From Bacillota bacterium (GTDB taxonomy: Bacteria > Bacillota > Clostridia > Christensenellales > CAMQZB01): a DNA stretch of 64,000 nt. The translations under genes and the position numbers were made by a program. The notes under the pieces were generated by a model, which ran no database searches, was not told the origin of the DNA, and saw nothing but the letters and a program-made list of their open reading frames with translations. Where the stretch lies: contig JAWXUU010000011.1 of NCBI GenBank assembly GCA_044426085.1, positions 3,069 through 67,068 of the forward strand. Direction: 5' to 3'. Shown one piece after another: positions 10,271 to 23,372 of this stretch; position 1 is the stretch's first letter, and every line of letters begins with the position of its first letter.

Positions 10271-10355
10271 GGGTGGTTTCCCGAGCGGCCAAAGGGAGCA
10301 GACTGTAAATCTGCCGTCTCCGACTTCGGTGGTTCGAATCCACCACCACCCACCA
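10271..10355 (+). tRNA. tRNA-Tyr (GUA), integration target of E1
   Basis: Acceptor GGGTGGT/ACCACCC, anticodon loop CTGTAAA, long variable arm, encoded CCA. Its 3' part is duplicated at 23314-23372. Confidence 0.9.
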
Positions 10356-10360
10356 CGAAA
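10302..10360 (+). repeat. attL of E1 (59-bp core repeat)
   Basis: ACTGTAAATCTGCCGTCTCCGACTTCGGTGGTTCGAATCCACCACCACCCACCACGAAA, identical to 23314-23372. Confidence 0.9.
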
Positions 10361-10463
10361 AGCATTAAATCTAACGATTTAGTGCTTTTTTTATGTATTT
10401 TTATCGAAAATCACTGCTTTTTCCTATTAAATAAATAGGATCACGTTTATAACGCTTTTTTTG

Positions 10464-10485
10464 TGGGTAAGTTTTTGGGTAAGTT
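10464..10485. promoter_or_regulatory. Candidate arm-type integrase binding sites (2 x TGGGTAAGTT, 12-bp period)
   Basis: Direct repeats at 10464-10473 and 10476-10485, abutting the int stop. A third copy lies at 23258-23267 near the other end of E1. Confidence 0.5.
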
Positions 10486-11588
10486 CAGACCATTTTTTCT
10501 GCCTGTTCATATTCAAAATCATCCCTAACTTTCGTGTATACATTCATGGTCATATCTATCTTGCTGTGCCCCATCCACTTCTGCACAACCTTTGCTGGTA
10601 TTCCTTTTTCGTGGCAAATAGTCGCAAATGTCGTTCTTAAATCCTTTAGCGTTTTGTCTGGGATAATAAGATGAAAATGCTTCAGCATTGTCCGCATATT
10701 CAACTTTTCAAAAACTCTATCTTCCAGAACTTCGCCATCTGGGAAAAGCTTCTCCACGTTGGGGAACAGTGGAACAGTCCGCCTTGCGCCTTTGGTCTTA
10801 GTTCCACGCAAGTATATTGTCCTTTTCTCTCTGTCTATATCCGACATTCGCAACCGCAAGCCTTCACCAGCGCGCGCGCCGGTGAAAAGGCAAAATAAAA
10901 AATATCTGTTTTCAAGAACGTTAGTGTCAAGATTAAGCAGCTGCTGTATCTGATCTTGAGAAAGATATTCCGACTTGATTTCTGCCAGTGGCGCTATTGT
11001 CAAACCTTCAGCAACATTTTCTTTGATGTGCTTGTTTCTTATTGCGCATTTGAAAATATCACTAATATAATATTTAAGTTTCTTCTGTGAAGTGTGTCCA
11101 GCTTTCATGCTGTTGATGCATTGTTGGATGTCCTTATGTGTGACTTTGCGCAGCTCCTTATTTTCCAGTGTTGGATATAAGCTGATTGTGACCAGTGATT
11201 TTATATTGGATAATGTTTTGGGCGTTATCTTGCCTTCTTTATAAAGTTCCAGATATTCCTCAAACCATTCTCCGAAAGTGATTTTCTTTTTTTGTTGTAT
11301 TTCTTTTTTCTCGGTTTTGTTTTCATCCCTCCATTTTTTAAATTTTTTGTTGACTTCGAGCTTTGTCTTTCCGTAAATTGATTTTGAAACGCCATCTTGG
11401 CGAACTCTCAGCTCATACGTTCCGTTCGCTCGTGTTCTTATTTTAGCTTTTGTCATGTCTGATATCTCCTTTTCGATTTCAGCACATCCCATAGCTTGCC
11501 CACTCTGTTCTCGCTCTTTCGTATACTCCATGAGTATAGTTGTAAGCTTCAGTATCTCTTCTAACATCCTCTTTTGAAAATTGTCCAT
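10485..11588 (-). CDS. Tyrosine recombinase / phage-type integrase
   Basis: Arm-binding-type N-terminus (ANGTYELRVRQDGVSKSIYGKTKLE) and a C-terminal catalytic region (ARAGEGLRLRMSDID, RTVPL, LRTTFATICHEKG, GHSKIDMTMNVY). AAGGAGGG lies before ATG 11588. An alternative internal start at 11456 also has AAGGAG. Confidence 0.9.
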   Translation of the reverse strand: MDNFQKRMLEEILKLTTILMEYTKEREQSGQAMGCAEIEKEISDMTKAKIRTRANGTYELRVRQDGVSKSIYGKTKLEVNKKFKKWRDENKTEKKEIQQKKKITFGEWFEEYLELYKEGKITPKTLSNIKSLVTISLYPTLENKELRKVTHKDIQQCINSMKAGHTSQKKLKYYISDIFKCAIRNKHIKENVAEGLTIAPLAEIKSEYLSQDQIQQLLNLDTNVLENRYFLFCLFTGARAGEGLRLRMSDIDREKRTIYLRGTKTKGARRTVPLFPNVEKLFPDGEVLEDRVFEKLNMRTMLKHFHLIIPDKTLKDLRTTFATICHEKGIPAKVVQKWMGHSKIDMTMNVYTKVRDDFEYEQAEKMV

Positions 11589-11696
11589 AAATATAGACCC
11601 TCCTTATTTGTCGTAAGGAAAGTCTACACTATATATTTTTTAAATATAAGTCTTGTCTTTTGAGTGAATATATAATAATATATTATATTATTATAT

Positions 11697-12497
11697 TTAG
11701 GTTTTTTCTTTAGGTCTTTTAATTATGTAGATAATTAACATTAATAGTATTGTGCATAAAAATGTTATAATCAAATATTGTAAACTCTGTAATTGTTTTT
11801 CTGCACTATCTTTTATATAAAAATTATAGATGCCATTATTTCGCATATTAATATATTTTGTATAATAAATATAATAACCAAGAGAAGTAAAAACTGAACC
11901 CCAAGCTATTAATAATATTATTTTTAGGAATATGCTTGAGTATAATATTTTTAAATTTGCAAAAATGCTAGGATATTCAAAAGATTCTGGTGATAACTCT
12001 TCTGTTGTATCATTTTTTTCTTCAATTATTTGTTGAGTAGGTGGGATAATATCTGGTAACTCTTTATGTGTTGTTGGTTCTTCAGCTTGAATTTTTTTTA
12101 TTTTTGATTTTGTTGGTGCTGTTATTATGATTATTAATATAACTAAGTAAATTAGCGGGTGCATTGTTTTTACAAGTATAGGGTTATATTGTGATGCTAA
12201 TGAGCCTAAAGCACTCGATGCTAGTAAGCTTATAGTTTCCAATGCGAGAATATCTTCATGTGTTGCAGTAAATAAATATCCATTTGATTGATGTGTTACT
12301 ATAACAAAATAATTTTCTCCTATTGGATTTTGGTAGTATTTTATTGATGATATGCCTGTAAGAGTATTTACTGCACTAGATAATGAATTAATGTTTATTG
12401 ATGATGTATCTGTTGTTATAAGCCCATAATCTGTTGATAGTATTTGGTAGTTAAATAGCATTATAAGAAATAATATTCCTATTGAAAATTTCTTCAT
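11697..12497 (-). CDS. Hypothetical multi-pass membrane protein (lysogeny-module cargo)
   Basis: 266 aa. AAGGTGA RBS. N-terminal signal-like helix, a mid helix and C-terminal helices. Extremely AT-rich. It sits between the repressor and int. Confidence 0.6.
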   Translation of the reverse strand: MKKFSIGILFLIMLFNYQILSTDYGLITTDTSSININSLSSAVNTLTGISSIKYYQNPIGENYFVIVTHQSNGYLFTATHEDILALETISLLASSALGSLASQYNPILVKTMHPLIYLVILIIIITAPTKSKIKKIQAEEPTTHKELPDIIPPTQQIIEEKNDTTEELSPESFEYPSIFANLKILYSSIFLKIILLIAWGSVFTSLGYYIYYTKYINMRNNGIYNFYIKDSAEKQLQSLQYLIITFLCTILLMLIIYIIKRPKEKT

Positions 12498-21816: not shown

Positions 21817-21859
21817 CTTTCCATCTTCATCAGCATCTAAAAATTGCGCGCGCAAGCGC

Positions 21860-21987
21860 GTCCTTGCATTAGCTTGAAGCACTAGTTGCGCTCGCCAGCG
21901 AGCGCAACCTTCAAGCCAAGGACTGCTAAAAATGCCAAAAATTCGCAAAGGATTTTTGGTTTACCCCCCACCGCTAATAGGGGGGTA
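21860..21987. promoter_or_regulatory. GC-rich nested inverted repeats (candidate origin) upstream of rep
   Basis: Perfect palindrome GTTGCGCTCGC-CA-GCGAGCGCAAC (21885-21908) nested in GTCCTTG..CTTGAAG / CTTCAAG.CAAGGAC (21860-21923). Also CCAAAAAT..ATTTTTGG (21934-21959) and TACCCCCC..GGGGGGTA (21962-21987). Confidence 0.5.
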
Positions 21988-22047
21988 CTGTTACAAGCAT
22001 GAAACGGCTTAAAGCCTTATGGCATAAGGGGAAAGTGGGTTTTAAAA

Positions 22048-23229
22048 ATGAATGAAAAAAATGAAGAAAAAAAAGGTAGAAAATGTCTTTATGACTGGGT
22101 TTCAATTTCATCAAAAATTCATACTGTTGATGAAATTATGTATATGTTAGGTATGGAGCAGTGTAAGTGGCAAAAAATGAAAGGTTTTTATGGGTATAAG
22201 CAAAGATTGTATTTTGAAAGTGTATCAATTCATTATGAAGGGCATGGAAACATGGGGGTATTTCTCGAAATGTCTGGTCAAGGCTGTAGAGCTTTTGAAA
22301 CGTTAGGCAATGGTAATTTTGAATGTTTATTTGATTTGGTTATTGCAAATCCAACAAATATGAATATAACTCGTTTAGATGTGGCTTACGATGATAAAGG
22401 TGATAAAAGTCTACCGCTGAAAAAAATTCTTGAAGACACGCAAAATGAAAATTTTGTTTCAATGTGGCATGAATATGAATATCTTTCTGGATCTAAAGGT
22501 ACAACGATTTATCATGGTTCAAAGCATTCTGATGTCAGACTTCGCATATATGATAAAGCTGCAGAACGTGGATACGATAAATTTGACGTCCAGTGGGTTC
22601 GTTGTGAGCTTCAGCTCCGCGATGATCGCGCTTTGAATTTTATTAAGCTTGATATGCCTATTGGTGATAAGTTTAGTGGTGTTCTGAAAAATTATATAAG
22701 ATATATTGTTCCTGATCGTTCTCGAAAATTCAATTGTTCAATGACAAAATATTGGAAAAAAATCTTAGGTGATATTGAAAAGATTTCAATATATTCAAAG
22801 CCAGGGTTGGAATACAACTTGATGAACATCCACAGACATATAATTCGCAGCTGCGGTGGTGGTGTCAAAACTCTTTTGAAAATATATGGTGTTGATGGTT
22901 TTGTGAACTTGGTAAACAAATATTCAAAAATAACGAATCCAAAACATATAAAAATTCTGACAGACTTTGAAAGCTTCAATGATTTTGAAAATTTGTTGAA
23001 TAATGACAAAGTAATGAAAAGTTTCTTCGGCTATGAATACTACATGTACAAGACTTATATCGACAGCATTGACATGTTGACTGAAGAAGATATTAAAGAT
23101 GAAAATGCAACAGTCGAAGAAGCCAAGGAACTTGAGTTCGAAAGAAAAATTGTCGATGACTTAGTTGAAATCAAGAAGCTTCAGGAACGTAGCAAAAAAC
23201 GTGAATGGATATATGATGTTCATGATTAA
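22048..23229 (+). CDS. Rep_trans-family rolling-circle replication initiator
   Basis: 393 aa with NITRLDVAYDD, VRLRIYDKAAERG and VRCELQLRDDRA. These motifs are characteristic of the Rep_trans (pT181 RepC / Tn916 Orf20 / some inovirus gpII) family. Confidence 0.8.
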   Translation: MNEKNEEKKGRKCLYDWVSISSKIHTVDEIMYMLGMEQCKWQKMKGFYGYKQRLYFESVSIHYEGHGNMGVFLEMSGQGCRAFETLGNGNFECLFDLVIANPTNMNITRLDVAYDDKGDKSLPLKKILEDTQNENFVSMWHEYEYLSGSKGTTIYHGSKHSDVRLRIYDKAAERGYDKFDVQWVRCELQLRDDRALNFIKLDMPIGDKFSGVLKNYIRYIVPDRSRKFNCSMTKYWKKILGDIEKISIYSKPGLEYNLMNIHRHIIRSCGGGVKTLLKIYGVDGFVNLVNKYSKITNPKHIKILTDFESFNDFENLLNNDKVMKSFFGYEYYMYKTYIDSIDMLTEEDIKDENATVEEAKELEFERKIVDDLVEIKKLQERSKKREWIYDVHD

Positions 23230-23313
23230 AAAGGTTGCATTTTGTTTTTAAAATTGTTGGGTAAGTTATAGGGTATGCGGTGCGAAAGTCCTTATTTATA
23301 AGGTTTTCTAGCT

Positions 23314-23372
23314 ACTGTAAATCTGCCGTCTCCGACTTCGGTGGTTCGAATCCACCACCACCCACCACGAAA
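23314..23372 (+). repeat. attR of E1 (59-bp copy of tRNA-Tyr 3' part)
   Basis: Identical to 10302-10360. No 5' half of a tRNA is present. Confidence 0.9.

Follow-up and report, generated by a model that had tools for sequence, protein, structure and literature searches.

A 64-kb stretch of Bacillota DNA (the window, to whose positions all coordinates below refer) contains an element integrated in a tRNA-Tyr gene, which we call E1. Judging from its genes and those of its relatives, we put at roughly 60% the probability that E1 is a filamentous-type temperate prophage, intact and inovirus-like, within the order Tubulavirales. An earlier description of the window, made from the letters without database searches (the sequence-only reading), had proposed an inovirus-like gene order and identity for the element. 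The family of the E1 ATPase, the gene context of its relatives, and comparisons of the E1 replication initiator and origin now agree with that proposal. Of the outcomes that the reading had listed as refuting it, none of those open to computation was observed. By its sequence, E1 is most likely a very divergent new representative of a kind already known; it extends a known system and is not a new kind.

Inovirus prophages are pervasive (PMC6813254). The sequence-only reading described integrated inoviruses of Gram-positive spore-formers as barely characterized, which is out of date: a 2023 study obtained images of inovirus prophages of Enterocloster and Hungatella, quantified them both in vitro and in mice, and showed nonlytic secretion of those of Enterocloster (PMC10061712).

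The E1 ATPase belongs to a Zot-related family

The pI/Zot ATPase is the only marker conserved across inoviruses (PMC6813254). E1 encodes a 375-amino-acid (aa) P-loop ATPase (20430-21557, + strand), which a family profile and an AlphaFold2 (AF2) model indicate to be a remote Zot/pI relative of the morphogenesis type. Walker A (GMARGGKT) is at residue 90, Walker B reads ILLDEAG, and the gene has a TTG start at 20430. Public gene calls of this ATPase (P0001, 306 aa) begin at an internal Met70 and so lose both transmembrane (TM) helices (20430-20636); the long form is real, because the N terminus from TTG 20430 is conserved in 71%-identical homologs.

Close homologs of this protein number only two in 5.8 billion clusters. 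A word-index search returned three to four proteins even with an 81-sequence profile, and an exhaustive HMMER search was needed; across 1.84 billion representatives, this gave a family of 184 cluster representatives, 89 of them at E ≤ 1e-10. We aligned 81 family members and scanned each against Pfam. Zot (PF05707) is matched by 18 of the 81 (best E, 5e-9), and the next P-loop family, nSTAND3, by 3; none matches the FtsK_SpoIIIE, T4SS-DNA_transf (type IV coupling protein [T4CP]), TrwB, or VirB4 models. The Zot cutoff is 20.3 bits, and the close relatives P0011 (20.6 bits) and P0014 (18.8 bits) fall on either side of it.

Profile comparisons point the same way. In hhalign, the ATPase family profile aligns with a profile of 14 N-terminally anchored Zots at 97.0% (E, 9.7e-11) and with one of 36 canonical Zots at 96.7% (E, 3.3e-10). 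Against single sequences it reaches 94.6% (E, 7.2e-8) for the Zot of Dulem virus 51 and 82.7% (E, 9.5e-6) for that of Bajarodino virus 24. The Zot profile alignments span Walker A, Walker B, and a (T/S)Q...R motif that includes the invariant Q236 and nearly invariant R246 of the E1 family; against PDB sequences, the family profile found only P-loop noise from AAA+ proteins. The sequence-only reading had left its ATPase between Zot/pI and FtsK/TraB, and these counts and profiles favor Zot/pI.

An AF2 model built from the 81-sequence alignment has a mean pLDDT (predicted local distance difference test) of 91.2, versus 38 with three sequences. In it, a pair of long TM helices at the N terminus leads into the P-loop domain, in line with the membrane-anchored Walker A/B ATPase described earlier. 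With Foldseek, the PDB matches include the packaging NTPase B204 of Sulfolobus turreted icosahedral virus 2 (STIV2; 1.6e-4) and the Zot structure 2r2a (7.8e-4). In BFVD, three unnamed viral proteins (best, 2e-10) are followed by ORF3 of Acholeplasma phage L2 (4.9e-6), and several "Inoviridae sp." Zot models also match (6e-6 to 5e-4). Structure alone, as modeled, would place the ATPase in the FtsK-HerA/Zot neighborhood without discriminating within it; the sequence profiles do discriminate.

Nearly all family members share one architecture: between one and three TM helices at the N terminus, then Walker A at about residue 90, with no TM helix beyond it. Canonical Pfam Zot proteins pass the gathering cutoff and have an extreme N-terminal Walker A and a later TM helix, none of which applies to the E1 ATPase; the pI/Zot marker of the Tubulavirales is present in E1 at the profile level only. 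Between E1 and its sister elements, the ATPase is the most conserved gene (71% identity, versus 41 to 52% for other shared genes). In inoviruses, pI is likewise the most conserved (PMC6813254).

The initiator and its origin hairpin are shared with inovirus-size genomes

The rolling-circle initiator recognized in the sequence-only reading is borne out. It is a 393-aa Rep_trans protein (22048-23229, + strand; PF02486, 7.6e-31; Rol_Rep_N PF18106, 1.9e-13; PHROG 453), and its nearest annotated phage counterpart is the Rep of Bajarodino virus 24 (40% identity over 75% of the length). Further matches come from Dulem viruses, which are deposited as Inoviridae.

The region 5' of rep had been described as a single GC-rich cruciform, and this has to be corrected: folded as single-stranded DNA (ssDNA), intergenic region 21817-22047 forms five to six hairpins (-49.9 kcal/mol; z = -5.4; 0 of 200 shuffles as good). 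The corresponding region of the sister element L001 has z = -4.5. The hairpin cluster, located at 21844-21987 (+ strand) from the ssDNA fold and inverted repeats, consists of a GC-rich imperfect hairpin at ~21862-21925, a hairpin at 21935-21959, and an origin-type hairpin at 21962-21987, TACCCCCC-ACCGCTAATA-GGGGGGTA (CCCCCC-N3-GCTAATA-GGGGGG). Hairpins of the same form stand directly 5' of rep in Bajarodino virus 24 (CCCCCC-GGGGCTAATA-GGGGGG) and in pRGI00226 (CCCCCC-GAGGCTAACA-GGGGGG). E1 thus has the rolling-circle initiator and hairpin-rich origin that are looked for in Tubulavirales. In pT181-type Rep_trans origins, the nick falls in a hairpin loop. By analogy, E1 is probably nicked in the loop at GCT/AATA, and the candidate stretch for Rep nicking reads TACCCCCCACCGCTAATAGGGGGGTA.

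The hairpin pattern CCCCCCNNNGCTAAYAGGGGGG has a single occurrence in the window, where chance would give none (N4-spacer pattern, one mismatch). It occurs in 73 IMG/VR contigs (L095-L169), nearly all of 4 to 13 kb. Sixty-two of the 73 have a Zot homolog, 40 of canonical architecture and 16 with N-terminal TM helices and Walker A at residues 48 to 103, as in the E1 family's arrangement of anchor before P-loop. In those of the 16 contigs where a Rep_trans homolog was detected, it lies 3' of the hairpin, usually directly after the ATPase. Of four N-anchored proteins tested against Zot, two pass the 20.3-bit cutoff (36.6 and 25.9 bits), one falls just below it (18.1 bits), and one has no match. 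One 7.95-kb contig (L161; IMGVR_UViG_3300011877_000020) has the E1 layout in miniature: small TM proteins, three ~300-aa proteins with a signal peptide and a C-terminal TM helix, an 84-aa two-TM protein, an N-anchored Zot, the hairpin, and Rep.

Two side observations concern this origin class. The hairpin CCCCCC-N3-GCTAAYA-GGGGGG is a compact DNA signature that could mark this Rep/origin class of gut inoviruses. The Rep closest to that of E1 (45.8% identity) is encoded by pRGI00226 (HG796283.1, L094; rat gut), a 5.6-kb circle with a run of small ORFs that was deposited as a plasmid and may instead be an inovirus replicative form.

Large anchored proteins and a candidate coat protein precede the ATPase

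The rightward operon comprises 13 + strand genes (95% coding) with spacers of 1 to 17 nt or overlaps. Its candidate major coat protein, assigned from sequence layout and position-matched homologs, is an 83-aa protein (13991-14242, + strand). As the sequence-only reading noted, it is laid out like Ff pVIII, with an N-terminal signal-like hydrophobic segment, an acidic middle (11 D/E), a hydrophobic segment at residues 55 to 71, and a basic end (...GKSYVDYKLR). Homologs occupy the same position in L001 (46% identity) and in another sister element, L170 (42%).

Four large secreted proteins encoded downstream, on the same strand, have an N-terminal hydrophobic segment and end in a TM helix followed by two to four basic residues, as had been seen before; their tails are KKKQ, KKMMG, KRG, or RK. 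The first, of 434 aa (14260-15564), is acidic, has immunoglobulin (Ig)/PKD-like repeats (weak Y_Y_Y, SpaA, and PKD matches), and is 44% identical to a 478-aa protein of L001. The second, of 251 aa (15582-16337), is Cys rich (15 Cys). The third, of 521 aa (16341-17906), combines 40 Cys and 15 CxxC motifs with an Ig-like domain in its C-terminal part; it has homologs in L001 and L170 and is paralogous with the 434-aa and 553-aa proteins. The fourth, of 553 aa (18044-19705), has 41 Cys and 18 CxxC motifs in DnaJ-type CxxCxGxG repeats (PF00684, 2e-4, below the cutoff), and its only homologs in 5.8 billion clusters are three proteins, all in sister elements. The large Cys-rich proteins as a group have homologs only in sister elements. 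The sequence-only reading had called the structural genes larger and stranger than known ones; four large paralogous type-I proteins exceed what isolated inoviruses carry. These four proteins may represent a new class of receptor-binding protein for a monoderm host.

The CxxCxGxG repeat is the zinc-knuckle motif of DnaJ and Anti-TRAP, found here outside the cell of an anaerobe (in the 521- and 553-aa proteins and also in the 251-aa protein). The CxxC-type repeats are visible in the DNA as well, as repeat family D3.

The remaining + strand products are small. ATG 13076 is the probable start of the first + strand ORF, which encodes a 137-aa protein (13076-13489; Shine-Dalgarno sequence and ATG present; no family) that may, judging only by where it lies, bind ssDNA. 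A very basic 85-aa protein (13722-13979; 24 K+R), 37% identical to a 93-aa protein of L170, is encoded after it. A 43-aa single-TM protein (17909-18040), overlooked in the first reading, is supported by its translation, by a gene call in public contigs of the same element, and by conservation in L001 (46 aa). Two N-terminally anchored proteins of 123 aa (19717-20088) and 120 aa (20066-20428) come next; the latter is conserved 5' of the ATPase (52% identity to a 116-aa protein of L001). An 88-aa protein (21550-21816) is conserved between the ATPase and the origin region (41% identity to an 81-aa protein of L001).

Scans of E1 with Pfam, PHROGs, NCBIfam, and PADLOC found no terminase, portal, capsid, tail, lysin, VirB4, T4CP, or FtsK match, in agreement with what the sequence-only reading had failed to see. 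The lack of capsid, terminase, portal, tail, and lysis genes (Pfam, PHROGs, and NCBIfam) is also what is expected of Tubulavirales.

Integration site and leftward module

E1 lies in a tRNA-Tyr (GTA) gene (10271-10355, + strand; ARAGORN; Rfam tRNA, 50.5 bits), the last of six tRNA genes at 9748-10355 (ARAGORN). The perfect 59-bp repeat reported to bracket the element was re-derived by repeat search: attL, the 3' part of the tRNA gene, is at 10302-10360, and attR, its displaced copy, is at 23314-23372. The two attachment (att) copies are identical at 59 of 59 nt (identity rechecked), spaced 13,012 bp apart, and extend from the anticodon loop to 5 nt beyond CCA. Next to attL is the gene for a 367-aa tyrosine integrase (10485-11588, - strand; PF00589, 2e-18; Phage_int_SAM_3; Phage_int_M; PHROG 1, 1.5e-62), so E1 has the integrase adjoining a tRNA 3'-duplicating repeat that characterizes tRNA-integrated temperate elements. 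The element had also been called an AT-richer block. This is so relative to its immediate flanks (35.3% G+C in the interior, 40.3% and 40.4% on the two sides), but not relative to the window mean of 36.4%.

The leftward module of repressor, membrane protein, and integrase agrees with family scans. A 122-aa XRE/Cro-CI-type repressor (12507-12875, - strand) matches HTH_26, HTH_3, and the regulator/repressor families PHROG 8 and PHROG 3. Between it and the integrase is a 266-aa multi-pass membrane protein (11697-12497, - strand), identified by its hydrophobic segments and without a family in Pfam, PHROG, NCBIfam, or PADLOC; it is possibly expressed in the lysogen, for example in an exclusion role. 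The consensus extended -10 promoter proposed for the rightward operon is a strong one, faced by the divergent repressor gene, and is the best promoter match within E1 (12925-12953, + strand; TTGACA-17-TGtTATTAT, 11 of 12 consensus positions with the upstream TG). A palindrome does overlap it, as claimed, but not as a perfect 18-mer: the near-palindrome ACATACGTAATTAAGTATGT at 12928-12947 is 20 bp long with one mismatched pair (18/20), and from its sequence and placement it is a candidate operator.

The identical element is present in three Logan runs (SRR26879380, SRR26879383, and SRR26879390). A 12.8-kb Logan contig of E1 ends within attR and within the integrase gene and is uninformative on excision.

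Just 3' of attR, three copies of a repeat of ~170 to 195 bp (23427-24173) each terminate in a terminator-like hairpin, GAAAGGCGAAGCTCTTTCGGCTTTTTTT. They hold tRNA-T-arm-like pieces (GAGTATCCACCC; GGTGGCGGATTCGAAC inverted) and a common block, TTCGCCTACGAGCGAAGCGAGTGCACGAGAATGC, which also follows L001 (L001 positions 10300-10500); a shorter second copy of the L001 att end follows that element, too. Their sequence suggests a tRNA-Tyr hot spot at which earlier integrations have left these repeats as decayed traces.

Sister elements share the module and exchange the initiator

The closest relatives, L001/L002 (GCA_028748465.1 and a Logan run), have the same order as E1, with homologs of its 83-, 434-, 521-, 43-, 553-, and 120-aa, ATPase, and 88-aa genes; their Rep is of the ORF2/G2P type (PF23343), and L001 terminates in the same tRNA-Tyr-derived att sequence as E1. 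L170, a 10.6-kb contig from a Logan run, carries this module too, down to the genes for a basic 93-aa and a coat-like 84-aa protein, with a Viral_Rep plus superfamily 3 (S3) helicase initiator. Two partial elements are L171 (GCA_028748325.1), which has a homolog of the 553-aa gene and does not reach Rep, and L003 (GCA_028748505.1), whose ATPase is 41% identical to that of E1 and whose Rep has Viral_Rep and RNA_helicase domains. More distant ATPase relatives from Logan runs (L004-L007) have PF23343 ORF2/G2P-type Reps; in L004, L006, and L007, proteins encoded 5' of the ATPase end in a TM helix and a basic tail.

Taken over eight relatives, the Rep gene 3' of the ATPase is of the ORF2/G2P type (PF23343) in six and of the Viral_Rep plus S3 helicase type in two, and secreted, C-terminally anchored proteins are encoded 5' of the ATPase wherever upstream sequence is present. 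Because E1 has Rep_trans and its relatives have ORF2/G2P or Viral_Rep plus S3 helicase, one structural and ATPase module combines with three HUH initiators, which bears on the exchange of replication modules among ssDNA viruses. Reps of the CRESS (circular Rep-encoding ssDNA) type stand directly after a Zot-like ATPase at L003 1534-2586 and L170 9511-10593.

A link of homologous elements to conjugation genes had been named as evidence that would count against an inovirus; none of the eight related loci has a type IV secretion system (T4SS), relaxase, or coupling protein gene. No related contig has the terminal overlaps of a circular copy. Scans of IMG/VR, GTDB representative genomes, and JGI metagenomes found no close ATPase relative, and tblastn against GenBank phages gave no match for the E1 ATPase or two Zot-positive relatives.

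A predicted life cycle

From the Ff paradigm and the filamentous phages documented in Clostridia (PMC10061712), the following steps may be inferred. Once the repressor is lifted, the integrase would excise a circle of ~13.0 kb. Rep would then nick the loop of the CCCCCC/GGGGGG hairpin (...GCT/AATA...), by analogy with pT181, and + strand rolling-circle synthesis would follow; the adjoining long hairpin may be the packaging signal, the minus-strand origin, or both. The membrane ATPase would thread ssDNA across the cytoplasmic membrane, where the 83-aa protein, waiting in the membrane, would coat it. The large type-I proteins, held by a C-terminal helix like pIII, would cap the filament and act in adsorption, and the particle would be extruded without host lysis.

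How confident can we be in a filamentous phage?

It is tempting to attribute the whole filamentous lifestyle to E1, and several points weigh against doing so too readily. Excision, ssDNA, and particles are predictions from its genes. The E1 ATPase by itself matches no model in Pfam (E ≤ 0.1), PHROGs, NCBIfam, PADLOC, or PDB sequences; its link to Zot is transitive and at the profile level; and in Foldseek, Zot scores no better than STIV2 B204 or L2 ORF3, with TM-scores of 0.3 to 0.6. The ATPase membrane anchor is N-terminal, unlike that of Ff pI. Assignment of the 83-aa protein as a coat protein is based solely on layout, with no homology to any known coat protein; no annotated phage encodes a homolog of the E1 structural proteins; and no ssDNA-binding protein was identified in E1. 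The "Inoviridae" labels of the comparators presumably derive largely from the Zot gene, through marker-based detection. Finally, 13.0 kb and four large paralogous type-I proteins exceed isolated inoviruses, whose genomes are ~5.5 to 10.6 kb. The size of 13,012 bp is not excluding, because a 16-kb Enterocloster inovirus has been predicted (PMC10061712).

The first alternative concerns the particle. Instead of a naked filament, the E1 virion might be a vesicle with a lipid envelope and variable shape, like the particles of plasmavirus L2 and of the archaeal pleolipoviruses; we consider such a vesicle improbable. In that case the large type-I proteins would act as spikes or in fusion, the small membrane proteins would lie inside the particle, genome condensation would fall to the basic 85-aa protein, and the anchored ATPase would load DNA into the bud. 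The topology of the large proteins (signal peptide, large acidic ectodomain, C-terminal TM helix, and short basic tail) is indeed that of a classic spike, and four of them are more than the known need of a filament tip. In alphapleolipoviruses, a rolling-circle Rep occurs together with spikes and an NTPase. Acholeplasma virus L2 (L13696) resembles E1 in several respects: it has ~12 to 13 kb, is temperate, encodes an integrase, a 738-aa type-I envelope protein (...LNKKRK), and small proteins with two to four TM helices beside its ATPase. Integration in tRNA genes is described for L2 and its relatives in the profile issued by the virus taxonomy committee ICTV (PMC12662186).

The ATPase of L2 is central to this comparison, since few structures match the E1 ATPase better (4.9e-6). 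In L2 ORF3 (L088; L13696 2278-3216), a hydrophobic N-terminal part precedes Walker A (ALPGGGKS, near residue 99, a position similar to that in E1), and Walker B (LILDEF) and an LLSQ motif are also present. The protein aligns with the canonical inovirus Zot profile at 93.7% (E, 1.9e-7), although Pfam Zot itself does not match it, and with the E1 family at 71.6%. A first profile test of the E1 family against L2 ORF3 gave only 12%, so that the similarity between the L2 and E1 ATPases is weak and, at 12 to 72% in hhalign, depends on direction. Since ORF3 of the enveloped L2 looks Zot-like, a Zot-like ATPase does not imply a filament, and by itself it cannot fix virion shape.

What favors the filament lies elsewhere in E1. 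BLASTP matched no E1 protein to any L2 ORF, and only the ATPase shows a remote resemblance to L2. L2 is a double-stranded DNA virus that replicates by the theta mode from DnaA-box origins (PMC12662186), in contrast to E1, whose rolling-circle Rep and origin are common to inovirus-size Zot genomes; of the Plasmaviridae traits, homologs of L2 proteins and theta replication, E1 shows only the remote ATPase similarity. The L2 particle is enveloped and buds from a wall-less host, and budding enveloped phages are known only from such hosts, while the E1 host is an endospore former and presumably thick walled. Filaments are documented for Clostridia (PMC10061712), and a small pVIII-like protein is present in E1 with its position conserved.

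A second alternative, about as doubtful, is that E1 is a defective or domesticated derivative of an inovirus that forms no infectious particles and has been retained on account of its surface proteins or of immunity. No known virion protein resembles the large Cys-rich ones, and the decayed att-like remnants 3' of attR show that decay occurs at this site. Against this, the E1 att repeats are perfect over 59 bp, its 13 + strand genes are intact and densely packed with coupled starts, and none of integrase, repressor, promoter/operator, and origin is missing. The module is also conserved under divergence in at least four sister elements with different Reps, and the identical element recurs in three sequencing runs.

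We give similarly little credence to a broader possibility, that E1 together with L001/L002, L170, L171, and L003 forms a family-level lineage bridging inoviruses and plasmavirus L2. Such a lineage could be marked by an N-anchored Zot-like ATPase, zinc-knuckle/Ig-like type-I proteins, and freely exchanged Reps, including CRESS-type ones. Its particle could be membrane derived or otherwise noncanonical, and L2 could have descended from Gram-positive inovirus-like ancestors. According to the 2018 ICTV profile, plasmaviruses share only the integrase with other viruses; if confirmed, the Zot-likeness of L2 ORF3 would be the first link of the orphan Plasmaviridae to other viruses.

Less probable again is that E1 is a nonviral integrative mobilizable or plasmid-like element, with Rep_trans as a MobT/NicK-type relaxase or plasmid initiator, the ATPase as a coupling protein or translocase, and the surface proteins as adhesins for mating or colonization. 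The sequence-only reading saw no MOB relaxase candidate, which needs qualifying, as Rep_trans has the MobT/NicK relaxase fold and the sole NCBIfam match of the E1 Rep is MobT (2.9e-18); the score, 65.8 bits, is far below the 600-bit cutoff. Many tblastn matches of Rep are in small Firmicute plasmids typed as mobilizable by MOB-suite, but inovirus genomes that have this origin hairpin give its best matches. A P-loop preceded by two N-terminal TM helices would also suit a T4CP, and FtsK, HerA, and EssC are among the weaker structural matches of the ATPase. Against this, the coupling-protein and VirB4 models match no family member where Zot matches 18, the partners of the ATPase in relatives are phage-type Reps, never T4SS or relaxase genes, and the pVIII-like protein and anchored-protein module are conserved alongside the ATPase. 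The pair that defines conjugative or mobilizable elements of this type, a MobT relaxase with an FtsK/TcpA/VirD4-type coupling protein, is therefore not found in E1. A tailed-phage satellite, like the phage-inducible chromosomal islands, was rejected, as E1 has no capsid-redirecting, primase, or terminase-small-subunit genes and its gene set is that of a Zot/Rep element.

Comparison with known systems

The inovirus prophages of gut Clostridia (Burckhardt et al. 2023, PMC10061712) and the candidate inovirus families of Roux et al. 2019 (PMC6813254) share with E1 integration at direct repeats, spore-forming Clostridia hosts, many short genes, small single-TM proteins, and the absence of lysis, capsid, and tail genes. 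They are mostly 6.5 to 8.5 kb with 10 to 16 ORFs (one is 16 kb), compared with 13.0 kb for E1, and the E1 ATPase is missed by Pfam Zot.

Bajarodino virus 24 (PQ006170; rodent feces; 5.8 kb; deposited as Inoviridae) shares Rep_trans and the CCCCCC-N3-GCTAAYA-GGGGGG hairpin 5' of rep, and its gene order matches that of E1 (small TM proteins, a 462-aa protein, a small protein, Zot, a small protein, the hairpin, Rep, and a repressor on the - strand). At the sequence level, only Rep and the origin of this virus and the IMG/VR comparators are similar to E1. These genomes have 4 to 8 kb, and their anchored proteins are of 290 to 460 aa and not Cys rich, unlike those of E1. Their ATPases are recognizable Zots of 258 to 301 aa, whereas that of E1 has 375 aa with an extra C-terminal beta-rich domain.

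In Ff, pVIII has a signal peptide, an acidic N terminus, and a basic C terminus, and the phage encodes a C-anchored adsorption protein, a membrane ATPase, and an initiator with a hairpin-rich intergenic region beside it. E1 follows this layout, with a candidate coat protein, C-anchored putative adsorption proteins, a membrane ATPase, and a hairpin region next to the initiator. It differs in the order of the ATPase (in Ff pI the ATPase domain is N-terminal and the TM helix comes after it), in having four large paralogs instead of one pIII, in its Rep family (Rep_trans instead of Phage_CRI), and in being temperate with an integrase. E1 also has no secretin, unlike Ff, as expected in a monoderm host. 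With pT181-family plasmids and the MobT/NicK relaxases of Tn916-, ICESt3-, and ICEBs1-type elements, E1 shares the Rep_trans fold, a GC-rich hairpin, and a likely nick site in the loop; unlike those systems, it has no copy-control, conjugation, or mobilization genes, and its Rep goes together with a Zot-type ATPase and coat-like proteins.

The inovirus marker test turned positive for E1 only after an exhaustive profile search, the ATPase being invisible to Pfam, PHROGs, and NCBIfam. Because this ATPase escapes the available models and has no relative in IMG/VR or among GenBank phages, nonlytic chronic phages of uncultured gut Clostridia are still underdetected.

Host and neighboring features

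Elongation factor G (EF-G) encoded by the host is at most 72% identical to that of any of 185,579 species representatives, the best being metagenome-assembled genomes of uncultured gut Clostridia, and the window encodes SpoIVA (540 bits, above the cutoff) and a SigF/SigG-type sigma factor. The EF-G divergence, SpoIVA, and the sigma factor together indicate that the host is a deep-branching, endospore-forming Clostridia bacterium, and on these sequences the earlier description of a Gram-positive spore-former is reasonable.

Elsewhere in the window, a glycine riboswitch aptamer (28272-28367, - strand; 63.9 bits) lies 5' of an AgcS-family amino-acid carrier gene (26518-27942, - strand). A second tRNA cluster is at 35650-36247. 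Because the window mean is 36.4% G+C while the DNA beside E1 is at ~40%, the region past this cluster must be markedly AT-richer, and 36000-64000 may hold further foreign DNA.

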